Below are positions 22,654-63,711 of a stretch of DNA of 64,000 nucleotides, one piece after another. The position numbers were made by a program, and so were the translations under genes. Each line of letters starts with the position of its first letter. The stretch's first letter is position 1. The DNA lies in NCBI GenBank assembly GCA_040264895.1, contig JBDQHL010000003.1, positions 72-64,071 of the forward strand, written 5' to 3'. The notes beneath the pieces were generated by a model, which did no database searches, was not told the DNA's origin, and saw nothing but the letters and a program-made list of their open reading frames with translations. Source of the DNA: Bacteroidota bacterium (lineage in GTDB: Bacteria; Bacteroidota; Ignavibacteria; Kapaibacteriales; UBA2268).

Positions 22654-24105
22654 TTAATATTTTATGCAAACATTTTTTGGCTCTGTGAAAAAGTCCATAG
22701 CTTCAAATCCACCTTCGCGACCCATTCCACTGTCTTTTACACCACCGAATGGGGTTCTTAAGTCACGTAGAAGCCAACAATTCACCCAAACTATACCAGA
22801 ATGAAGTTGTTCAGCTACCCTATTAGCTCTACTAATATCTTGAGTCCAAACTGTAGCAGCTAATCCATACTTTACACTATTTGCGTATTCTAGCACCTCT
22901 TCTTCTGAGCTGAAGGGTTGTAATGTGACAACTGGACCAAATATTTCCTCTTGATTAGTACGGCAATTGTGTCCTAATCCCTCTATCACAGTAGGTTCAA
23001 TAAAGTACCCATTCTCACATCTTCCTTCTGGTCTAACAGCATTTCCACCAGCAAGCACTGTACCTCCCTCTTCTTTTGCTAACTCAACATATGATAGTAC
23101 TTTTTCTTGGTGGTCTTTAGAAACCACCGCACCCAAATTACTTGTCTCATCACTTGGATCACCAACTTTTAGCTTCTTTACCTTGGCTACGAAGTCATCT
23201 CGGAATTTTTCATAAATCGACTCGTGAATATAGATGCGAGACCCACAAAGACATATTTGTCCTTGGTTAGCAAAGGAAGACATAACACTTGTTCTCAAAG
23301 CATTGTCATAGTCACAATCGTCGAAAATAATATTAGGATTTTTTCCTCCAAGTTCAAGAGACATTTTCTTGAATTTTGGAGCTATTGTTCTTGCTATATG
23401 TTCTCCAGTCTTAGTTCCACCAGTGAACGAAATCGCCTTTATATCATCGTGGTCAACTATACTTTGACCTGCATTGGGACCATTCCCATGGACAATGTTT
23501 AACACTCCAGCTGGCAATCCAGCTTCTACACAAACTTCAGACAGCAAGTAAGCAGTCATTGGGGTAACCTCACTCGGCTTAGCTACTACAGTGTTACCTG
23601 TAGCGAGAGCAGGTGCAATCTTCCAAGTAAATAGATAGAGTGGTAGATTCCAAGGCGAAATACACCCAACAACACCCAATGGTTGTCGAAGTGTATAGTT
23701 AATAGCAGGCTTTTCTACCATATGGTGTGACTGACTTCCAAAGTGCATTGCCGCAGTAGCATAGAACTTAAAGTTAGATTTTGCTCTTGGTATATCTACA
23801 GCTTTCGCTAGCTTTAATGGTTTACCATTGTCTCTGCTTTCTGCTTCCACAAACTCGTAGAATCGTTTGTCTATTCCGTCCGCTATTTTCATTATATAAT
23901 CGTGGCGTGCCTCGTTCGATAATTTAGACCACATTGGAAATGCTGCTTTAGCAGCAGCAACTGCTTTGTTAACATCATCTTCATCAGAGTCGGGTATCTG
24001 TGAGTAAACTTCACCAACAGCTGGGTCATAGATATCTAAATAATTCTCATTAGCTGGGGCAATCAATTCGCCGTTTATATAATTTTTTAGTTTTAACATA
24101 TTCAT
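22654..24105 (-). CDS. NAD(P)-dependent aldehyde dehydrogenase
   Basis: 'ELGGKNPNIIF' (catalytic Glu), 'GQICLCGSRIY' (catalytic Cys), 'FTGGTKTG' NAD-binding. Confidence 0.85.
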   Translation of the reverse strand: MNMLKLKNYINGELIAPANENYLDIYDPAVGEVYSQIPDSDEDDVNKAVAAAKAAFPMWSKLSNEARHDYIMKIADGIDKRFYEFVEAESRDNGKPLKLAKAVDIPRAKSNFKFYATAAMHFGSQSHHMVEKPAINYTLRQPLGVVGCISPWNLPLYLFTWKIAPALATGNTVVAKPSEVTPMTAYLLSEVCVEAGLPAGVLNIVHGNGPNAGQSIVDHDDIKAISFTGGTKTGEHIARTIAPKFKKMSLELGGKNPNIIFDDCDYDNALRTSVMSSFANQGQICLCGSRIYIHESIYEKFRDDFVAKVKKLKVGDPSDETSNLGAVVSKDHQEKVLSYVELAKEEGGTVLAGGNAVRPEGRCENGYFIEPTVIEGLGHNCRTNQEEIFGPVVTLQPFSSEEEVLEYANSVKYGLAATVWTQDISRANRVAEQLHSGIVWVNCWLLRDLRTPFGGVKDSGMGREGGFEAMDFFTEPKNVCIKY

Positions 24106-24365
24106 TTCGTGGTTTTAATTTCAGTAGCAATTATACAAAAATACGAAATATAATGGGATTTAATTAAGTGATTAACCCATTATATGTTTTATTAAATATT
24201 TATTGATTTAAGAAATAGGATTTTTTTAAAAAATTACAATTCAGTAAATATTACTACTACACAAAAGCATGACAAACAGATAGCAAATTTAACGTTTGCA
24301 TCAGTGTATCCTCACTATATCACTAAGGTTGAGAAAAAAGGTAGAAAAATGGATAAAATATTAAG

Positions 24366-24402
24366 GACAAAATAAAAAGGTACCACCTATATGTAGTACC
24401 TT
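24366..24402 (-). terminator. Rho-independent terminator of ssb (AAGGTAC...GTACCTT hairpin plus T-run on the minus strand)
   Basis: 'aaataaaaaggtaccacctatatgtagtacctt'. Confidence 0.5.
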
Positions 24403-24423
24403 AAGAAACTTTTATTTTTTTCA

Positions 24424-24861
24424 TCATTCTCCGAAACGAGAATCAAAATCACTATCTAAATCGTCATCCGCTCCTGAAAAATTATCTTCAAAATCGGAAC
24501 TATCTTCGTTATTGCTTCTACCATTTTTTCTGTCTTCTAACACAAGCATATTGTCTGCTAATATTTCAACAACTTGTTTTCTATTTCCTTCGCTGTCTTC
24601 ATAGTTTCTTGTTTGCAACCTACCTTCTACATAGATTCTAGTACCCTTAGTTACTAGTTTATCTATTACTTTTGCTAGGCCTCGCCATGCGACTATAGTA
24701 TGCCAATCAGTATGTTCTTTTAGATTTCCTTCTCTATCCTTCCAAGATTCAGATGTAGCCATTCTAAACGAAGTGACCGGCACGCCACCAGGTGTTTCTT
24801 TAAGTTCAGGTTGCTTACCAACATTCCCAATCAACATTACCTTATTAAGTGTTCTAGACAT
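24424..24861 (-). CDS. ssb: Single-stranded DNA-binding protein
   Basis: OB-fold N-terminus 'VMLIGNVGKQPELKETPGG...' and acidic C-terminal tail '...DDDLDSDFDSRF'. Confidence 0.85.
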   Translation of the reverse strand: MSRTLNKVMLIGNVGKQPELKETPGGVPVTSFRMATSESWKDREGNLKEHTDWHTIVAWRGLAKVIDKLVTKGTRIYVEGRLQTRNYEDSEGNRKQVVEILADNMLVLEDRKNGRSNNEDSSDFEDNFSGADDDLDSDFDSRFGE

Positions 24862-24920
24862 TTATCTTCTCCCGAGCTATTATTTTTGATTTCAACTTTT
24901 ATCCTTTTCGATAGGATTTA

Positions 24921-24958
24921 ATATAAAATAAAAAATTCCATTTATCAAATGGAATTCC
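24921..24958 (-). terminator. Rho-independent terminator of the lipoprotein gene (perfect 10-bp stem AATTCCATTT/AAATGGAATT plus T-run on the minus strand)
   Basis: 'aaaataaaaaattccatttatcaaatggaatt'. Confidence 0.6.
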
Positions 24959-25105
24959 TTGTTAAAATTACAGTTTTAATTTGGGTCTAGCCTTCTATTT
25001 GGTTAAGACACATTTTAGTTTTCTGCCATTTCCATTAAAATATTGTCCTTTCAATTTTACTTATCGGTGAGTTTTCATAATACTTTAATGTTTTTTTCAT
25101 TTTTT

Positions 25106-25714
25106 TTACCATAAAGGCAAAGTTTCATATAATTCACTTACATCAAAACTATAGATTTCTATCTCTGCTCCTTCTTCGGTAGCAAACAATGTATACTCAG
25201 TTCCAGGTATATCAGTTTTATGTCTAATTATCGTATCACAATCTACTATCATAGTAGTATATTTTGCATCCTGAACTATTTGAAATTTCAATAATTCATC
25301 TACATTAATCTTCTTCTCTCTGTAACTATACAAGTATTTATCATTCTCATAAACATCAATCTTATCTGATTTGAATACTGCTTTTATACCTGCTTTCTTA
25401 CCATCTGCTAAGGGTGAAGTCCTTTCAACTACACTAAACTCAACTGACTTCACTGGCTTTAAGTAAAATGATTTTTTATATTGAGTTTCATCAAACATTC
25501 GAAGAGCAGTAACTGAGCTCTCTTCTATTCTTAGTGCATCGTCAGCAATCAAGTTAACCGTAAGTGGATTGTCAGCTCTGTAGCCAACTACAGCAGGAAA
25601 CATAACACTTCTAAACTTGTTCATCACAAATGTATCAGAGGCACATGAAGTGATTAATAACGATAATATAACTATTGTAATAGGTTTCATTAAATTATTG
25701 TAATTTAGTTGCAA
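25106..25714 (-). CDS. Hypothetical lipoprotein
   Basis: Signal peptide ending in the lipobox 'LLITSCAS'; no recognisable domain. Confidence 0.45.
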   Translation of the reverse strand: MQLNYNNLMKPITIVILSLLITSCASDTFVMNKFRSVMFPAVVGYRADNPLTVNLIADDALRIEESSVTALRMFDETQYKKSFYLKPVKSVEFSVVERTSPLADGKKAGIKAVFKSDKIDVYENDKYLYSYREKKINVDELLKFQIVQDAKYTTMIVDCDTIIRHKTDIPGTEYTLFATEEGAEIEIYSFDVSELYETLPLW

Positions 25715-25785
25715 GGTTAAATTTAGAAAAAATTTATTTCACTTTCAAAAAATTTCAATCTTCTTTAAACTATTTCAAAATATTT

Positions 25786-26958
25786 GTGTCTCAACTATAT
25801 GAAAAACTAATACTACTTATATTCACTACCTTACACTTATCCGCACGTGATTACTATTATCCACCAATAGATTCGGATGACTGGGAAACTACAAACATTA
25901 CTGATTTAGGTTGGGACACCGATGAGAAAGACGAGTTATCCAACTTCCTAGATACCACTGGCACAAAGGGCTTCATCATATTAGTCAATGGTAAGATAGC
26001 AATAGAAGAATATTTTAATGAATTTGATAAATCAAAATTTTGGTACTGGGCTTCGGCTGGAAAAACACTTACAGCAACTATGATTGGACTTTCCGAGCAA
26101 GATGGATTATTAGACATTGAAGAGCCAACTTCCAATTATTTAGGAAATGGCTGGACAAGCATGGACACTGAAAAAGAAACTAATATTAAGATAAGACACA
26201 ACCTATCTATGTCAACAGGATTGGATTATGATGTTGATAATCAAAATTGTATAGACCCCGAATGCCTTAACTATCTTTATGAACCAGGAACGCATTGGTT
26301 TTACTACAACACGCCTTACCGATTACTATTAGATGTGTTGGATTCAGTTTATGACAAAAGAATAAATCAAGTTACAAACCAGCTAATCGGTAACAAAATT
26401 GGTATGGGTGGATTTTGGTTAGATTATGTTCGCTGGGGAACAGCGAGAGATTTAGCAAGGTTTGGATTATTCGTAACATCTGGTGGGAAGTGGGAAGATA
26501 GATTAGAACTTAATTCTGATTATTTTTTCGATATGATAAACACTTCGCAAGAGATGAATAAATCTTATGGTTATTTGTGGTGGCTCAATGGTAAGGAAAG
26601 TTATAGGTTACCAACTTTAAACTTAGAATTTCAAGGACAACTTGTACCCTCAGCACCCAGTGATATGTATGCAGCATTGGGTAAAAATGACCAGAAAATT
26701 TATGTAGTACCCTCACTTAACATGACAGTAGTAAGAATAGGTGATAGTGCTGGAAAGTTAATGTTAGCTTCTTCATCATATGATACTCAGCTTTGGACAA
26801 TGATAATGAATATGATGCCTACAACAAGTATAGAACTGAAGGAAAACGATTTGTTTATTTACCCAAATCCAGTAAAGGATGTACTTAAAATAAAGTCTAT
26901 TGAGAAATTTGATAAAGTTCTAATTTACAATGCATTAGGAAAAAAGTATCTGAATTAG
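25786..26958 (+). CDS. Secreted serine hydrolase (beta-lactamase/transpeptidase fold) with a T9SS C-terminal sorting domain interrupted by a frameshift; the CTD continues in the -1 frame to 27068
   Basis: 'WASAGKTLT' SxxK motif. The tail 'LFIYPNPVKDVLKIK...LIYNALGKK' is a T9SS CTD start, and the remainder '(V)SELDFSNNINLGSLPNGYYIIELINHNSTSKRFRFMKAE*' is encoded in another frame right after an A6 run at 26940-26945. Confidence 0.6.
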   Translation: MSQLYEKLILLIFTTLHLSARDYYYPPIDSDDWETTNITDLGWDTDEKDELSNFLDTTGTKGFIILVNGKIAIEEYFNEFDKSKFWYWASAGKTLTATMIGLSEQDGLLDIEEPTSNYLGNGWTSMDTEKETNIKIRHNLSMSTGLDYDVDNQNCIDPECLNYLYEPGTHWFYYNTPYRLLLDVLDSVYDKRINQVTNQLIGNKIGMGGFWLDYVRWGTARDLARFGLFVTSGGKWEDRLELNSDYFFDMINTSQEMNKSYGYLWWLNGKESYRLPTLNLEFQGQLVPSAPSDMYAALGKNDQKIYVVPSLNMTVVRIGDSAGKLMLASSSYDTQLWTMIMNMMPTTSIELKENDLFIYPNPVKDVLKIKSIEKFDKVLIYNALGKKYLN

Positions 26959-27255
26959 ATTTTAGTAATAATATAAATCTTGGATCCTTACCTAATGGAT
27001 ATTACATAATAGAACTTATTAATCACAATAGTACAAGTAAAAGATTTAGGTTTATGAAGGCAGAGTAGAAATAAACAAATTTTACTTTTTGAATGATAAA
27101 AAAGAAATTTAACTTTCGAAATTACCAAACTACTAACATCCTCTGATTATACTTTATTCCGATAGATTTCTGAGAATTTCTATGCCAAATTCATTTTTTT
27201 AATTTAGCTTTGACATCCAAGCAAACCCTTTTTACACCACTTCATTGACAATTAT

Positions 27256-27289
27256 AAAAAAAACCAACTCTGCCAGAAGACAAAGTTGG
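27256..27289 (-). terminator. Orphan strong rho-independent terminator (CCAACT...AGTTGG hairpin plus T8 on the minus strand) with no upstream minus-strand CDS
   Basis: 'aaaaaaaaccaactctgccagaagacaaagttgg'; only a weak T-tract on the plus strand. Confidence 0.5.
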
Positions 27290-27666
27290 TTCTTATCAAA
27301 TAATAGTTATATGAACTATACCGCTCTTACTACTGTAGTAGCTGCAAGAAGGCTTGTGGATTCTGGTTCGCTTGCGAAAGCGAAGTCAGTGATGTTTGCT
27401 GTAAGAACTGAGCTTTGATTAGTCACAAGGGGTGTGTCAAAAAATAAATTGATGCCAGAGGAAACCCAGCTCTCTATTATTATTCTTTGCTTGTACTTTA
27501 CAGTTATATCAGTACGTACAAAACAATTTTAACAAGATTTATTTACCATTTATTATCAGTAAAATTAAAATTTCTGCTCTAAAATAAGTAATTTTGGATG
27601 TGTTAATTATGCCTCATAAAATAGGATAATATTCAACACAGCTTTTTTTTTGGTTAATATTATACA

Positions 27667-28272
27667 ATGACTACAAGCAGCAATAATAATAATAGAATAA
27701 TAAAACCAGAGGTACTTCTTCAAGCTTATAAGCAAGGTTATTTTCCTATGGCTGATAGCAAAGAAGGAGACATCTATTGGCATTGCCCTGACCCAAGAGC
27801 AATTATACTACTCAATAACACCAAAAAGCCTAGATCACTCAGAAAAAATGAAGAAAAGAATACGTTTGAATACAGAGTCAATACTAACTTCAAAGAAGTA
27901 ATAACCAAATGTTCTGACAGAGATGACACTTGGATTTCTGAGGAAATCATAGAAACTTATGTAAAGCTTCACAATCTTGGTTCCGCACATTCTGTAGAAA
28001 CTTATATGGACAATCAATTGGTGGGAGGCCTTTACGGGGTAGCAATTGGTGGTGCATTTTTTGGAGAATCTATGTTCAACACTAAGACTGACGCAGCAAA
28101 GGGTGCCTTTTACTATCTAATTGATTTACTCAAAAAGAAGAACTTTTTGCTTCTTGATACTCAATATATAAATCCGTTTACAAAGCAACTTGGAGCTATT
28201 GAAACTAGCTTTATGGATTATTCAAAAAAGTTAATAAAAGCTATAAACTTTGCCACAAGTTTTGTAGATTAG
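27667..28272 (+). CDS. aat: Leucyl/phenylalanyl-tRNA--protein transferase
   Basis: 'QAYKQGYFPMADS...IYWHCPDPRAIIL' and 'VGGLYGVAIGGAFFGESMF' are the conserved Aat motifs. Confidence 0.85.
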   Translation: MTTSSNNNNRIIKPEVLLQAYKQGYFPMADSKEGDIYWHCPDPRAIILLNNTKKPRSLRKNEEKNTFEYRVNTNFKEVITKCSDRDDTWISEEIIETYVKLHNLGSAHSVETYMDNQLVGGLYGVAIGGAFFGESMFNTKTDAAKGAFYYLIDLLKKKNFLLLDTQYINPFTKQLGAIETSFMDYSKKLIKAINFATSFVD

Positions 28273-28275
28273 ATT

Positions 28276-30087
28276 ATGAGAATACTAACTATATTATTCA
28301 TATTAATATTTTTATCTTCTTGCAGGCCCCATATCAACAAAAAAAATGATATAGATTGCGAGGTTCCAATAGTAGAATGTGAACAATCCTCTTGGACAGG
28401 CTCACCACTTGACACCTCATATTACAACAGTGGTAAAAACTTTTATTACAGTATAAAACAAGTTGAAGGTCTAAATACTTCAGATCAAGAATATTCTATA
28501 TTTCTCTCAGATTTAATTCATCCACAGAGTAATAAAAAAATAAACCTTGCTACCATAGGTGAAGAACTTGGCCAAAGAACATATTTAATAGAAAGAAGTT
28601 TAGATATTAAAACTAAAACAAAAAGATATGACAGTTTTAAAAAAGTTTTAGATATTAAAGGAGATAGCCCAGGGCACATCGGTTTTCCTACATTAGTCGA
28701 CAATGAAAGGATTGTAATAGCTTCAACTTTCGCTTCTGATCAAACCTCAGAAACTAAAATAAATGGTTACTACGAGATAATACCAATAGAAGAATCAATA
28801 GGCCAATCTCGATTATATGACGTTAAAAAAGGTAATGAAAAACAGATTGAAACTGATATAACACACAAATACAGTCATTTGATCTGGGAGTCTCATCCAA
28901 GTTTTGACATGGAGAATAATATATTATTCTTTGCTTCAGACAGGGAGAATGGATACGGCGGGGTCGATTTGTGGTATATGCTATTTGAGGATGAAGAATG
29001 GATAGGTCCGTATAATTGTGGTATGAATGTTAACACACCTTGTGATGACATTACACCCTTTCCTGACCCAAAAGGTAAAAGACTTTATTTTAGTTCAGCT
29101 GCTCATAATAGTGTTGGTGGCTATGACTTGTTTTACATTGATTATAAATTAGAGGTCACTAACTCTAAAAAGTCAGTAGTGTTTGACAGTGAAATATATA
29201 ATGTTGGTGCACCAATTAATACTGTAGCTGATGAGATTTCTCCATTCTTCAAAGACAACCCAGATAACTATTTTTACTATAGTTCTGACCAAGATGGTGA
29301 TTTTGATATATTTGTAAAGCAAAAAGTCTTCAAAAAAGGAACAGATAAATTTAACAGTGAAAATAAGGAAGAAATAGTTGAAAACACTGAAGTAGTTATT
29401 CCCACTGACTCAGTTGATATCAACCCTATGTTTAAATTGGAGGGAGTAGTAACTGATAAAAGAACTCAGGAGCCAATAAAGGATGTAGATGTTTCAGTAA
29501 CTAAAGAAAAAGAAACTACCCCCTACAAGAAAACTAAAACGGATAATGAGGGAAAGTATAAATTTGAACTTGAGAAAGGCCCTGAGTATAATGTGAAAAT
29601 AGAGGATGACACACTCTTCTACGAACAATACACAGTGAAAGTAGACAAGAATAACAAGTCAAATTCGGTAGTCCGAGATATATCAATGGATATTGTTAAA
29701 ACTGTTCGGATTAACTTTGAATATGACAAGTCAGATGAACCTTATGATTATATTTTGGACTCATTAGGAAATCAACAGAATATAACCTGGCAAAATGCCA
29801 TTGACAATCTTTCTAATGATATTAAAGGTTCGCAATCTGTAATAGAAGAAGTAATTATAACAGGTCATACAGATCCAGTTGCAAGTGCATCGTATAATAA
29901 AAATTTAGGCCAGAAAAGGGCAGAGTTTGTTGTTTCTCAGTTAGTAAAACGTGGAATACCTATTTACCTATTAAAAGCAAAAAGTAAAGGTGAGACACAA
30001 AAGCTAGAAAAATTTGAGAACGAGAATACTAAACAATACCATAAGCGTTTAAGAAGAGTTATATTAGAAAAAGTATTTATAAAATGA
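28276..30087 (+). CDS. OmpA-family lipoprotein with PD40/TolB-like repeats and a C-terminal OmpA peptidoglycan-binding domain
   Basis: Lipobox 'LSSC'; 'YYSSDQDGDFDIFV' PD40-type repeats; C-terminal 'ITGHTDPVASASYNKNLGQKRAEFV' OmpA-like motif. Confidence 0.7.
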   Translation: MRILTILFILIFLSSCRPHINKKNDIDCEVPIVECEQSSWTGSPLDTSYYNSGKNFYYSIKQVEGLNTSDQEYSIFLSDLIHPQSNKKINLATIGEELGQRTYLIERSLDIKTKTKRYDSFKKVLDIKGDSPGHIGFPTLVDNERIVIASTFASDQTSETKINGYYEIIPIEESIGQSRLYDVKKGNEKQIETDITHKYSHLIWESHPSFDMENNILFFASDRENGYGGVDLWYMLFEDEEWIGPYNCGMNVNTPCDDITPFPDPKGKRLYFSSAAHNSVGGYDLFYIDYKLEVTNSKKSVVFDSEIYNVGAPINTVADEISPFFKDNPDNYFYYSSDQDGDFDIFVKQKVFKKGTDKFNSENKEEIVENTEVVIPTDSVDINPMFKLEGVVTDKRTQEPIKDVDVSVTKEKETTPYKKTKTDNEGKYKFELEKGPEYNVKIEDDTLFYEQYTVKVDKNNKSNSVVRDISMDIVKTVRINFEYDKSDEPYDYILDSLGNQQNITWQNAIDNLSNDIKGSQSVIEEVIITGHTDPVASASYNKNLGQKRAEFVVSQLVKRGIPIYLLKAKSKGETQKLEKFENENTKQYHKRLRRVILEKVFIK

Positions 30088-32899: not shown

Positions 32900-34291
32900 A
32901 TGAAGACAAGAATACTATTAATACTTTTGGTTACTTTAGTTGTACAGTCATGTAGTTTCACAATTACTCGTGAGGAAGAAGACTTATATACGGTAGTCAA
33001 CAAAGATACTGTAGAGACACATTTCATCAAAAATGCTCCCGGTAATGTTGATAGAGGTGTAGTTCACCCATCCACAAAGGAAATTCTTAGAGAAAGAGAT
33101 ATAGCTAAGTATGATAGCACTGTTAACCGCTTTTATCCTGACTTTATTCGTTTAGGTTTGTTCGAAGGAATGGGTTTTATAGGTGGCGATACAGACTTTT
33201 CACTCAATAGTGGTTTATTGGGTATTCACCCTAATGCTGATTTACTATATGAAAGTAGCAGAGGTGGAGGAAGTGGAAGTATATTCACAGGTGGAATTTA
33301 TCGAATAGGGATTTACGAAAATAGACTACGTTGGTTCCGTGATGCTCCAGATTGGACTTGGGGAGTACATGGTTTTGAAGCTATAGTACCAGATGCAAGA
33401 GCTGAGAATAGTCTAACTTCAATGTTGACTCCATACATAAGAAAGAGATTTTATTTCAGAGATGATATACCTTACTTATCAGCTACTATAGCTGTTGGGC
33501 TTGGTTACTACCCTTCACAGTATATTAATGTTTCTGGTTCACTTGATCTTGGGTCAATTGGAGGGTTAAACCTAAGGGCTTATGTAGGAATGGCTTCTGG
33601 TTACAATTCTGCTACGACACCACAAATATCAAATAACGACTTTGCTGAAGAAGGTATTTTTAGTACACTCCCCTATGCTGGACTAAGTGTATCTGTACTT
33701 GATTTTGTTAATCGTGTACCCGAGTTGTACACCGAGTGGAAAGACCACGAGCATTCATCGTGGAATATTGGAATTGCAGAGCTAACAGTAGTTAATACAA
33801 ACTCTGAGTACTCATATTTTGGGAGTGAGACTGAGCCATCTGATTCACCAATTAGTGGAATGATATTCAAATTCGCTAATGCAAATGTCGCTATACCTAT
33901 TGAAGATAATTATAACTTTTACGCAGGTACTTCGCTAATATCAATGTATTTATTGGGTCAGAATGGTAATGGGATTGGAATTCTACCAATTCGAATTGGG
34001 TACTGGCACCAGTTAATGCAAGATGAGTTGAGTGTTGATCCATATGCCGAATTTGGTTATTACCCATCCAGCTACTACGATGTTGGAGTAAAGTTAAGAC
34101 TAAGGTTTAGTGAAAGATATAGTGTTGCTCTTAATGGAGGATATATTTCTGGTAGAACTTTAGGCGGTATTAATAGCGAAACCTTAGATTTCTTAGGTGA
34201 TGCAGATAGCTTCAGTGGATATTATATTGGACTTAGTTTTGGACTTGGCGATAGAATTTTCTTCCCAGAAGAATTAAGATATGATGACTAA
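32900..34291 (+). CDS. Hypothetical lipoprotein, Gly/Tyr-rich (probable outer-membrane beta-barrel)
   Basis: Signal peptide plus 'VVQSC' lipobox; Gly/Tyr/Ser-rich alternating pattern; no recognised domain. Confidence 0.45.
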   Translation: MKTRILLILLVTLVVQSCSFTITREEEDLYTVVNKDTVETHFIKNAPGNVDRGVVHPSTKEILRERDIAKYDSTVNRFYPDFIRLGLFEGMGFIGGDTDFSLNSGLLGIHPNADLLYESSRGGGSGSIFTGGIYRIGIYENRLRWFRDAPDWTWGVHGFEAIVPDARAENSLTSMLTPYIRKRFYFRDDIPYLSATIAVGLGYYPSQYINVSGSLDLGSIGGLNLRAYVGMASGYNSATTPQISNNDFAEEGIFSTLPYAGLSVSVLDFVNRVPELYTEWKDHEHSSWNIGIAELTVVNTNSEYSYFGSETEPSDSPISGMIFKFANANVAIPIEDNYNFYAGTSLISMYLLGQNGNGIGILPIRIGYWHQLMQDELSVDPYAEFGYYPSSYYDVGVKLRLRFSERYSVALNGGYISGRTLGGINSETLDFLGDADSFSGYYIGLSFGLGDRIFFPEELRYDD

Positions 34292-35900: not shown

Positions 35901-36581
35901 TTGTCTGTTATTATGAGTGATAAAATGATAAAATACAATGTAAACGAAATATTTTACTCCATACAGGGTGAAGGAAGCAGAGCAGGGTTGCCTTGTGTAT
36001 TTGTTAGGATGCAAGGTTGTTTGCTGCGTTGTACTTGGTGCGATACGCCTTACGCTTTAGATAGAAAGCAAACTGAAACGCTAATGAGCATTGAAGAAAT
36101 CTTAAAGGAAGTAGATAGTCACAACTGTAAGTTCTTGATGTTAACCGGTGGAGAGCCTTTAGAACAAAAAAATATTAGTGAATTAGTTGATGCAGCCATA
36201 GATAGAGGTATGGAAGTAGTAATAGAAACAAATGGGCAGCAAGACATAGGAAAGGTTTCTAACAAAGCAGTAAAAATATTAGATTTAAAATGTCCTGGTT
36301 CTGCTATGCACAAGAAGAATAATTACTCTAATATTGAAAAATTAGACGATAAAGATGAAGTGAAGTTTGTAATAAAAGATAGAAACGACTATGACTGGTC
36401 AATTAAGAAATGCGAAGAATATCAGCTATTTGATAGAGTCTCTGAAGTTTTAATGTCACCAGTATTCGGTGAAATTGAGCCAGTAGATTTGGCAAATTGG
36501 ATATTAAAGGATAGCCTTCCAGTTAGAATGCAAATGCAACTTCACAAATATATTTGGGAACCAGCAACCAGAGGCGTGTAG
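35901..36581 (+). CDS. queE: 7-carboxy-7-deazaguanine synthase QueE (radical SAM)
   Basis: 'IFYSIQGEGSRAGLPCVFVRMQGCLLRCTWCDTPYA' is the QueE radical-SAM cluster motif. Confidence 0.85.
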   Translation: MSVIMSDKMIKYNVNEIFYSIQGEGSRAGLPCVFVRMQGCLLRCTWCDTPYALDRKQTETLMSIEEILKEVDSHNCKFLMLTGGEPLEQKNISELVDAAIDRGMEVVIETNGQQDIGKVSNKAVKILDLKCPGSAMHKKNNYSNIEKLDDKDEVKFVIKDRNDYDWSIKKCEEYQLFDRVSEVLMSPVFGEIEPVDLANWILKDSLPVRMQMQLHKYIWEPATRGV

Positions 36582-38011
36582 TGCGATTAAAAACAGCTAC
36601 AATTTTAATATTTTTGACAACTATTCAACTAGTAAGTCAAGAACACTTTGTTGAAAGAAGAAGTTCAGTTGGTGAGATAGGTTTCATATTGAACAATTTA
36701 GGTCAAGTTGGATATAGCAGTGAACTAAATCAATCAAGATTTGTCTGGCCTAAAGGAAGTGATGCGCAATATATTTATGGTGCTGGATTAGCAATATTCA
36801 CGAAGCTCCCAAATGGTGAAAATAGAAATTTCTACACTTATCACCCTAACACATCCAAGAGCGATTTTACTATTGGTTCTTATGCTGACACTTCCGAACC
36901 AACCGAAAGCAAATACAGAGTTTACAATTCAAATGATTATGATATATACTCTGGAATTGCAAAAGAAGAGTTCATGAATGAATTCAGATGGCCAGTGTGG
37001 GTTGGAAATAATAAATTTGAAAAAATATATGGGAATTATATTATTAAAAATTCCGAAAGGACCCGTACCATATCTAGACCCGAAATAAGAAGTGAAGAAG
37101 ATATGGTTACTATCGCAAAAATAGACGCCAGCTATCCGATTGAGAAAATTCCAAATCCAAAAGAATCCGGAGATCTCAGAATAGATGTTGAGACCAAAAC
37201 ATATACATTAGAAAACTTACCAAATGTGCTTTTTATAACTTGGATCGTTCACAACAGAGGTACAAAAATTTTAGACAGTGTCTCTATTGCCCCTATAGTA
37301 GATATTGACATAACTAGAGCAAGCCAAAGATTCAAAGGTGTAGATAATGACATAATGTTACTTCCTGAAGATGATTCTTATGCAGTATTCGCAACCGAAG
37401 TGGATGAAACTGAAAAAGGGGAAGAGTTTCAATATATGGTAATTGACAATGACTACAAAATTGATATTGAATATAATGAAAATCAAAATTTATCTAGGCT
37501 AAATTATGGTGTATATAATCTAGGTTTAGAAACTGATTATAGTTTTTTTCAAATGGAAGATTATATTCAACCTGATTCAGTAAAAAAAATAACGGGTGAG
37601 ATTAAAGTGTTTTCACCTTCCCACAGATTTAATTTATTAGCAGGGAAAAAAGTAGTTCTGACCTTACAGATTTTGATGTTCCCAGCTAATGATGACTACC
37701 CTGAATTCCCTAAGCAAGGTATTGAAAATTTAGGTCAGGTTTTAGATAACAATTGGATTGAATTTTACAGAGAAGTAAGAACTAATGTTGATATTACTGA
37801 AATCCGAGAGTTAGACTTATTCCCAAACCCTGCTAGAAACTTCATAAATATTGACAGCAAATACAAGGCTGATTTAGTTGAAATTATATCTTTAGAAGGG
37901 AAAGTTGTAAAAACTTCAAAAGGGTTAGATAGTATAGATATCACCTCCCTTCAGTCTGGTGTATATATCTTAAGAATTGGTGAGATGAGTAGGAAATTTA
38001 TAGTGGAGTGA
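36581..38011 (+). CDS. Secreted hypothetical protein with a T9SS C-terminal sorting domain (ORF track starts at TTG 36554; GTG 36581 gives a clean signal peptide)
   Basis: Starting at GTG 36581 (read as Met) gives N-terminus '(M)RLKTATILIFLTTIQLVSQ', a clean signal peptide; C-terminus 'LDLFPNPARNFINID...GVYILRIGEMSRKFIVE' is a canonical T9SS CTD. Confidence 0.55.
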   Translation: MRLKTATILIFLTTIQLVSQEHFVERRSSVGEIGFILNNLGQVGYSSELNQSRFVWPKGSDAQYIYGAGLAIFTKLPNGENRNFYTYHPNTSKSDFTIGSYADTSEPTESKYRVYNSNDYDIYSGIAKEEFMNEFRWPVWVGNNKFEKIYGNYIIKNSERTRTISRPEIRSEEDMVTIAKIDASYPIEKIPNPKESGDLRIDVETKTYTLENLPNVLFITWIVHNRGTKILDSVSIAPIVDIDITRASQRFKGVDNDIMLLPEDDSYAVFATEVDETEKGEEFQYMVIDNDYKIDIEYNENQNLSRLNYGVYNLGLETDYSFFQMEDYIQPDSVKKITGEIKVFSPSHRFNLLAGKKVVLTLQILMFPANDDYPEFPKQGIENLGQVLDNNWIEFYREVRTNVDITEIRELDLFPNPARNFINIDSKYKADLVEIISLEGKVVKTSKGLDSIDITSLQSGVYILRIGEMSRKFIVE

Positions 38012-62515: not shown

Positions 62516-63107
62516 ATGGAAGATAATAGCGCTTTTGTTTATTGCATTTTGTCTTTCTTCTTGTGACAAAGAAGAGTCGAATATCGAATATACAAAGCAA
62601 ATAGAAGAGTACAGAGCAAATGTAATTGACTTTTTTCTCAACTCTCAAGATTCACCATTAGTAGATATGATGGAGAAATCTGAGCCTATATACTATGCTC
62701 CAAAAGAAAAGTATAGAGTTGAGGCATATTTAGAACAATTTGACAATCAGGACACATTAGAAATGCTTACAACTCAGAGCGATGTTAGAAAAATGGTTCG
62801 TTATGGCGAGTTACAATTTAAATTAGATGATCAAAAATATACATTGAATGCATACATTAATGTTGAGCACCCTGAGAGCTTTTTTGTTCCATTCCACGAC
62901 AAAACAAATGGCAAAGAAACATATGAAGCAGGTAGATATATAGATATAGAAAGAACAGATAAGACTCAATATATTTTAGATTTTAACTTAGCTTACAACC
63001 CTTATTGCTATTACAATCCAAAGTATTCTTGTCCGATTGTACCAGAAGAAAATATATTAAACACAAAAATAGAAGCAGGCGAAAAGGCAGACAATGAAAA
63101 ACATTAG
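62505..63107 (+). CDS. DUF1684-like lipoprotein
   Basis: Lipobox 'CLSSC'; 'LAYNPYCYYNPKYSCPIVPEEN' matches the DUF1684 conserved Cys-containing motif. Confidence 0.55.
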   Translation: MNYKWKIIALLFIAFCLSSCDKEESNIEYTKQIEEYRANVIDFFLNSQDSPLVDMMEKSEPIYYAPKEKYRVEAYLEQFDNQDTLEMLTTQSDVRKMVRYGELQFKLDDQKYTLNAYINVEHPESFFVPFHDKTNGKETYEAGRYIDIERTDKTQYILDFNLAYNPYCYYNPKYSCPIVPEENILNTKIEAGEKADNEKH

Positions 63108-63711
63108 AATTATCTTAGTAGTATTGTTGATAGTGGGTTTTAACTCATGTATCATAGTTAAAAAAGACGGCAAAGAACAAAGGGACGCAATTGTTAAGCT
63201 TAGCCCAAAGCCTATAGTACCTATGCAAGAGGAAACAATAAGATCTGAAGCAGGAGATATGATTGTCTCAATTCCCGAAGGTTGGTTCTTTGTAGATATG
63301 GATAATAAACTTTCAGCAGAAACTATCGCCATAGCTACTAACCCAGAATACAATTTAACTGCAGTATTCAAAAGGATATTACCTTCTAATACATTAGAAT
63401 TAAATTACAAAAACGAAAAATTAAAAGGTGTAGCAGAGTATAGCTACAAGCAAAAAGCTAATACTACTAATGGTAAGTGTCAGTTAACATCAGATTATGG
63501 TGATATAATAGCTGGCAATATATCCTTTGGTAGCTACACTTACTCAAATACTGGCGGTACTTTGACAGCAAGAACAGCAGTGCTAAAAACTGACATAGAT
63601 AATTACTATGAGTTCACGCTTATACCAACAGACATAAATGGTATGTCATACCCAACGGAAATTGAGCAAGAAAACATATTCAAATCAATATTAGCTACAT
63701 TAAAGTATTAA
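63094..63711 (+). CDS. Hypothetical lipoprotein
   Basis: Signal peptide plus 'GFNSC' lipobox; no recognisable domain. Confidence 0.4.
   Translation: MKNIRIILVVLLIVGFNSCIIVKKDGKEQRDAIVKLSPKPIVPMQEETIRSEAGDMIVSIPEGWFFVDMDNKLSAETIAIATNPEYNLTAVFKRILPSNTLELNYKNEKLKGVAEYSYKQKANTTNGKCQLTSDYGDIIAGNISFGSYTYSNTGGTLTARTAVLKTDIDNYYEFTLIPTDINGMSYPTEIEQENIFKSILATLKY

Follow-up and report, generated by a model that had tools for sequence, protein, structure and literature searches.

We found that the open reading frame (ORF) at 25786..26958 (+) of the window, by which we mean the whole 64,000-nucleotide stretch of DNA analysed here, carries two independent one-base deficits in runs of A and is probably a recent, fixed pseudogene of a T9SS cargo gene for a PF00144 serine hydrolase. 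In the proposed course of events, the ancestor would have encoded a 423-aa protein made up of a Sec signal peptide, a PF00144 (class-C beta-lactamase-related) domain and a type-A C-terminal sorting domain (CTD). One deletion, in the A-run at 25802-25806 right after the start codon, would have put the ancestral ATG out of frame, where it reads MKN*. The other, in the A-run at 26940-26945, would have cut off the last ~40 CTD residues, which carry the outer-membrane export signal. Any product translated from the GTG at 25786 would then reach the periplasm at best, and would be without T9SS recognition, export and surface anchoring. The feature is real and ordinary, and the kind of event is already known. 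It offers a small, clean example of the apparently recent loss of a T9SS cargo gene in an Ignavibacteriota/Chlorobiota-like lineage, with little import beyond annotation: the locus is better labelled a frameshifted pseudogene with two lesions than a 390-aa 'serine hydrolase', the label given by the gene callers of several collections.

Interruption of the sorting domain

As it stands, the ORF (25786..26958, +) encodes 390 aa from GTG 25786, comprising the PF00144 domain and the first ~30 CTD residues, and ends in ...LIYNALGKKYLN (...GKKYLN). The zero-frame codons across the homopolymer, an A6 at 26940-26945, are GGA (26938) AAA AAG TAT CTG AAT TAG (26956-58). In the -1 frame, reading from 26946 yields VSELDFSNNINLGSLPNGYYIIELINHNSTSKRFRFMKAE*, which terminates at 27068 (123 nt). 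This tract (26946..27068, +; VSELDF...RFRFMKAE*) was identified as the orphaned second half of a T9SS type-A CTD by translation, by a profile split test and by ortholog alignment. The tail aligns with the CTDs of orthologs and is still open and recognisable. When DNA comparison with orthologs was extended to the lesion itself (the A6 run plus the following G, 26940..26946, +), the window was one base short of the ancestral frame; at this site, GGA AAT AAA GTC is found in the nearest ortholog.

When one A is added to the run at 26940-26945, a continuous 423-aa protein results. In this repaired protein, Pfam Por_Secre_tail (PF18962) matches residues 354-415, across the junction (E = 1.7e-11, 44.7 bits), and NCBIfam TIGR04183, 'T9SS type A sorting domain', matches residues 354-421, also across the junction (38.8 bits; cutoff 23). 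For the split test, we ran the PF18962 profile on the encoded end, on the out-of-frame tail and on both joined, with a cutoff of 27 bits. The truncated, encoded end covers profile positions 1-32 of 75 at 22.1 bits, under the cutoff, and the 390-aa product therefore has no complete CTD above the family cutoff of this profile (22.1 vs 27 bits). The out-of-frame tail covers positions 44-72 of 75 at 18.3 bits, and the joined pieces cover positions 1-72 of 75 at 49.2 bits. The reconstruction of the CTD by joining is far above chance.

These results agree with the core of the preliminary description, which had read the locus as a T9SS-cargo serine hydrolase with a broken CTD: a PF00144 domain and a type-A CTD are present, with a one-base deficit between the CTD halves. 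Its statements that the ORF stops at 26958 with the other CTD half in another frame, and that an added A (A6 to A7) restores the domain, are borne out by the translation and split test and by the PF18962 and TIGR04183 matches across the junction, respectively. It had also proposed a comparison with orthologs, which might have ended naturally without a CTD; we found that the orthologs have full CTDs, indicating that the truncation is a lesion and not the native architecture.

Like T9SS type-A cargo (e.g. P. gingivalis RgpB), the ancestral protein had a signal peptide, an enzyme domain and a ~70-residue C-terminal beta-sandwich sorting domain. Unlike in such cargo, the CTD encoded here stops at about model position 32 of 75; with the C-terminal signal strands in another frame, the protein made would not be competent cargo. 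In P. gingivalis, cargo whose CTD is shortened by its last residues stays trapped in the periplasm, the export signal being located within the last ~22 residues (PMC4804311). With its last ~40 residues lost, the product of this gene would be no T9SS substrate, even if it were made from the GTG and exported by Sec.

A second lesion at the start codon

A second one-base loss, at the start of the gene, is a lesion that the preliminary description did not have. In a DNA alignment with three ortholog loci (L005, L006 and L008), the window ATG at 25799 matches the ortholog ATG base for base and a gap follows directly after ATGAAAA, such that the A5 run at 25802..25806 (+) is missing one base relative to all of these orthologs. 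Where the orthologs read ATGAAAACAYTAATA or ATGAAAAAACTTATA, the window reads ATGAAAA-ACTAATA; the longer aligned starts are ATGAAAA-ACTAATACTAC in the window, ATGAAAACACTAATACTAC in L006 and ATGAAAAAACTTATACTAC in L008. The ancestral start is now a dead 3-codon ORF (25799..25810, +; ATG AAA AAC TAA, or MKN*). When one base is added to the A5 run, the frame reads MKKLILLIFTTLHLSA/RD (the slash marks the cleavage-like site), a signal peptide resembling the MK[TK]LI... of the orthologs.

The close orthologs all begin with MK[TK]LI..., as compared to (M/V)SQLYEKLI... in the window ORF, and none of the aligned orthologs has a start upstream of the ancestral ATG like the window's GTG (MSQLYE). This GTG (25786) is in frame, 13 nt upstream of the old ATG. 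The N-terminus that it initiates has a hydrophobic core and an LSA/RD cleavage-like site, but an atypical n-region (MSQLYEK, with no net positive charge). DNA alignment further shows two upstream non-coding motifs on the + strand that are shared with the orthologous loci, TTAAACYATT at 25765-25774 and TTGTGTC at 25784-25790, and these are conserved though the proteins of the loci are only ~60-70% identical. The region 25765-25790 is probably a promoter or operator. GTG 25786 sits inside the conserved non-coding TTGTGTC, which makes its use as a start doubtful.

Apart from the two lesions, the gene shows little change. Across 120 sequences, the window protein has two unique deviations at columns conserved at 97% or more, both conservative, and all catalytic and invariant residues are kept. 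Because the coding sequence is otherwise pristine and the tail is still open, the inactivation is likely to be recent. The same absence of decay in the catalytic domain is a counterpoint to the pseudogene reading, and, going by its in-frame GTG N-terminus, a periplasmic CTD-less enzyme could still be made. We therefore weighed the possibility that the gene is still functional, with a start at GTG 25786, Sec export and a CTD-less periplasmic serine hydrolase as product, which would be a change of compartment and not a loss. The fully intact catalytic domain with all its invariant residues favors this possibility, as do the hydrophobic h-region and LSA/RD site that the in-frame GTG leaves and the known periplasmic retention of CTD-truncated cargo (PMC4804311). 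However, the GTG lies within a non-coding motif conserved in orthologs and may be neither transcribed nor used, there is no net positive charge in the new n-region MSQLYEK, and the 30-residue CTD stump (three of seven strands) would probably not fold and would likely be a target of periplasmic proteases. Moreover, no close ortholog (P0002-P0030, 46-71% identity) lacks the CTD domain. Taken together, we consider a functional, re-targeted enzyme unlikely, and inactivation remains the preferred reading.

Possible sequencing error, phase variation or recoding at the A6 run

The preliminary description had offered two explanations for the break, a sequencing error at a homopolymer or a slipped-strand ON/OFF switch, and neither was borne out. 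If the first were correct, the true genome would carry an intact gene, with an A6 at 25802 and an A7 at 26940. In its favor, each lesion is the lack of a single base in an A-run, and such errors are classic for some platforms. Against an error, the A6 DNA is identical in at least three separate assemblies, two from ENA and one from JGI: ENA ERZ27296340 (k141_168118, a MEGAHIT-style name; 622 kb), ENA ERZ27296361 (4.4 kb, also with a MEGAHIT-style k141_ name) and JGI 3300066022 (a 2.25-Mb contig) each match the window at 100% identity across the gene and its flanking DNA. NCBI (on a 1.33-Mb contig), ENA, Logan and JGI all have a record of the same 390-aa protein. In the 7.2 kb common to the window and the JGI contig, every homopolymer is identical. 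An exact tandem duplication of 228 bp (76 aa), absent from the window, sits in a downstream gene of the JGI contig, indicating that this contig is a separate assembly; the assemblies are separate, while the ENA and JGI samples may share one study or habitat.

The rest of the window also speaks against an error. We found that 28 other window ORFs are complete in domain architecture by Pfam or NCBIfam scan, for example glmS (1-610 vs a 601-position model), NrdJ (full length) and urocanase (with all three domains), and 312 A/T runs of five or more fall within the 52 other window ORFs that reach 100 aa or more. No intact version of the gene was found in a ~15-billion protein collection. Two lesions in one gene, with none evident elsewhere, do not look like uniform homopolymer error and fit relaxed selection on one gene. 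With the same A6 in separate assemblies and the other ORFs intact, we regard a homopolymer error as very improbable.

Overlapping same-strand ORFs (15806/16165/16580, 35901/36554 and 61754/62505/63094) were considered as further frameshifted genes and rejected: seven of the eight match different families (63094..63711 matches none), and thus none looks like a fragment of its neighbor. A chance control based on the openness of alternative frames past the stops of other ORFs was uninformative, as it was inflated by overlapping downstream genes.

In the second explanation, toggling of the run at 26940-26945 between A6 and A7 would turn export and surface attachment OFF and ON. Homopolymer contingency loci undergo slipped-strand phase variation in surface genes of Neisseria, Campylobacter and Helicobacter. 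As in those loci, the gene is for a surface or secreted product and its frameshift falls in a mononucleotide run; adding one base brings back the frame, and the out-of-frame tail is intact. In contrast to contingency loci, the tract here is six A's, common in an AT-rich genome, only one state is observed, and there is a second, unrelated frameshift. For a contingency tract, an A6 is too short and too common: in the window there are 60 A6 and 42 T6 runs (102 of exactly six) and 53 longer ones, up to 9. All assembled sequences and the protein collection hold only the OFF allele. Four hypothetical repaired proteins were looked up exactly in the ~15-billion-sequence protein collection and none was present, and a DNA pattern for the A6 site with a variable run of 5-8 nt gave zero matches in the JGI metagenome contigs scanned. 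In addition, the nearest ortholog has AAT AAA at the site, indicating that a long A-run has not been maintained in the lineage, and the start frameshift would need to toggle in step. The second independent one-base loss, at the ancestral ATG, is a signature of decay and not of regulation. A switch is thus extremely improbable, with an ordinary A6, only the OFF allele seen and a second frameshift at the start.

A further alternative is programmed -1 ribosomal frameshifting of the dnaX type, by which the gene would give a short periplasmic and a full-length T9SS-exported product. The zero frame reads GG A_AAA_AAG (26940-26946), with AAA (26941) and AAG (26944) in frame, and a -1 slip gives exactly ...GKKVSELDF.... 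A_AAA_AAG is the dnaX slippery sequence (PMC9307594, PMC5389563), and the site thus resembles a dnaX-type site in its identical heptamer, its correct register and its full-length -1 product. Unlike a dnaX-type site, it is without a downstream hairpin or pseudoknot and without ortholog conservation, and the heptamer is a side effect of the deletion: one base lost from GGA AAN AAA GTA automatically leaves GGA AAA AAG TA. No downstream stimulatory structure was found: the MFE is -13.4 kcal/mol vs -11.3 on average for shuffled sequences (z = -0.80), 46 of 200 of which fold equally well. The motif is not avoided in the window, where intact genes contain eight other in-frame A_AAA_AAG sites. The orthologs are all single contiguous ORFs without a frameshift, and the start-codon lesion argues for a dead gene.

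Programmed recoding at A_AAA_AAG is therefore not supported, and we give it almost no weight, although trace unprogrammed -1 read-through is plausible. A single-base deletion in a Lys-Lys codon pair automatically yields the classic -1 slippery heptamer, and since such deletions create it, pseudogenes of this kind may be slightly leaky. There is only the slightest chance that the locus is live, with the heptamer (and possibly slippage in the 5' A-run) producing a minor full-length, T9SS-exported form and a major periplasm-retained form. If true, one gene would supply the same hydrolase to two compartments via recoding within its secretion signal.

The gene family and its surroundings

The match of the protein to the PF00144 beta-lactamase-family serine hydrolases scores 56.2 bits (cutoff 27), and S86-A-G-K89 (S-x-x-K) and Y169 with N171 (Y-x-N) are invariant in an alignment of about 17-20 sequences. 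Class-C beta-lactamase-related hydrolases of this family share both motifs, S-x-x-K (here SAGK) and Y-x-N. In contrast to the characterised PF00144 enzymes, to which its similarity is only distant, the copy in the window is frameshifted twice. The nearest solved structures, 4GB7 (6-aminohexanoate-dimer hydrolase) and 8RLJ (a class-C-related hydrolase), are distant (E = 2e-7 over ~70 residues). JGI names family members 'CubicO group peptidase (beta-lactamase class C family)'.

The family is a large one: 7,956 of the 8,000 candidates scored were matches. Beyond the window's own protein, identity in a 5.8-billion-cluster database reaches no more than 70-71%. All 119 listed relatives besides the window's own protein are contiguous ORFs; relatives P0002-P0027 (51-71% identity) are 413-425 aa long, with the close ones at 422-424 aa, and nearly all have PF18962, and a few more distant listed relatives lack the CTD domain. 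The named relatives come from Chlorobiota and Ignavibacteriae MAGs, and the host probably belongs to this lineage as well. A search of GTDB representative genomes for relatives returned one unrelated Lacibacter match at 24% identity.

Upstream of the hydrolase gene lies a divergent lipoprotein-like gene (25106..25714, -), which is 80% identical to its counterpart beside the hydrolase in L006 and 69% identical to that in L005. This shared divergent neighbor supports true orthology of the L005 and L006 loci, and since the lipoprotein gene is kept beside the hydrolase gene in the orthologous loci, it may be a functional partner. The lipoprotein has the lipobox LLITSC and matches no Pfam or NCBIfam family; other callers use an internal ATG, which gives 194 aa. 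In L005 and L006, the two closest relatives, the hydrolase-lipoprotein pair sits amid flagellin, FliS, FliD and OMP beta-barrel genes, and in the window (22654-28272) it sits between SSB/aldehyde dehydrogenase and aat. Judging from this gene order, either the pair has evidently moved or its surroundings have been rearranged.

The 228-bp segment that is duplicated in the JGI contig corresponds to window 29310-29537, within the ORF 28276..30087, and to positions 6525-6981 of L003; it is single-copy in the window and in the ENA contig L001. The gene that contains it is of the PD40/CarboxypepD_reg/OmpA family and encodes 679 aa in the JGI contig vs 603 aa. The two forms reflect either a true in-frame polymorphism in domain copy number or the collapse of a repeat during short-read assembly.

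Scans of 28 window ORFs turned up no T9SS core gene. In a further candidate T9SS cargo of the window, 36554..38011 (+), the sole domain recognised is an intact Por_Secre_tail (45.6 bits). With its listed TTG start, this ORF would overlap the preceding radical-SAM ORF by 28 nt; the true start probably lies further downstream. Neighboring genes with an intact CTD are also present in the ortholog locus L006, and these intact CTDs are indirect signs that the host may encode a T9SS. Two other ORFs had no family match, 32900..34291 (+; 463 aa) in Pfam and NCBIfam and 63094..63711 (+; 205 aa) in Pfam. Scans of the whole window found no Rfam match and no tRNA. On the 3' side of the orphaned CTD is a ~600-nt intergenic stretch (27069-27666), in which one gene caller puts a 35-aa ORF, and at 27259-27294 there is a strong 16-bp hairpin between A-runs and T-runs that resembles a bidirectional terminator.
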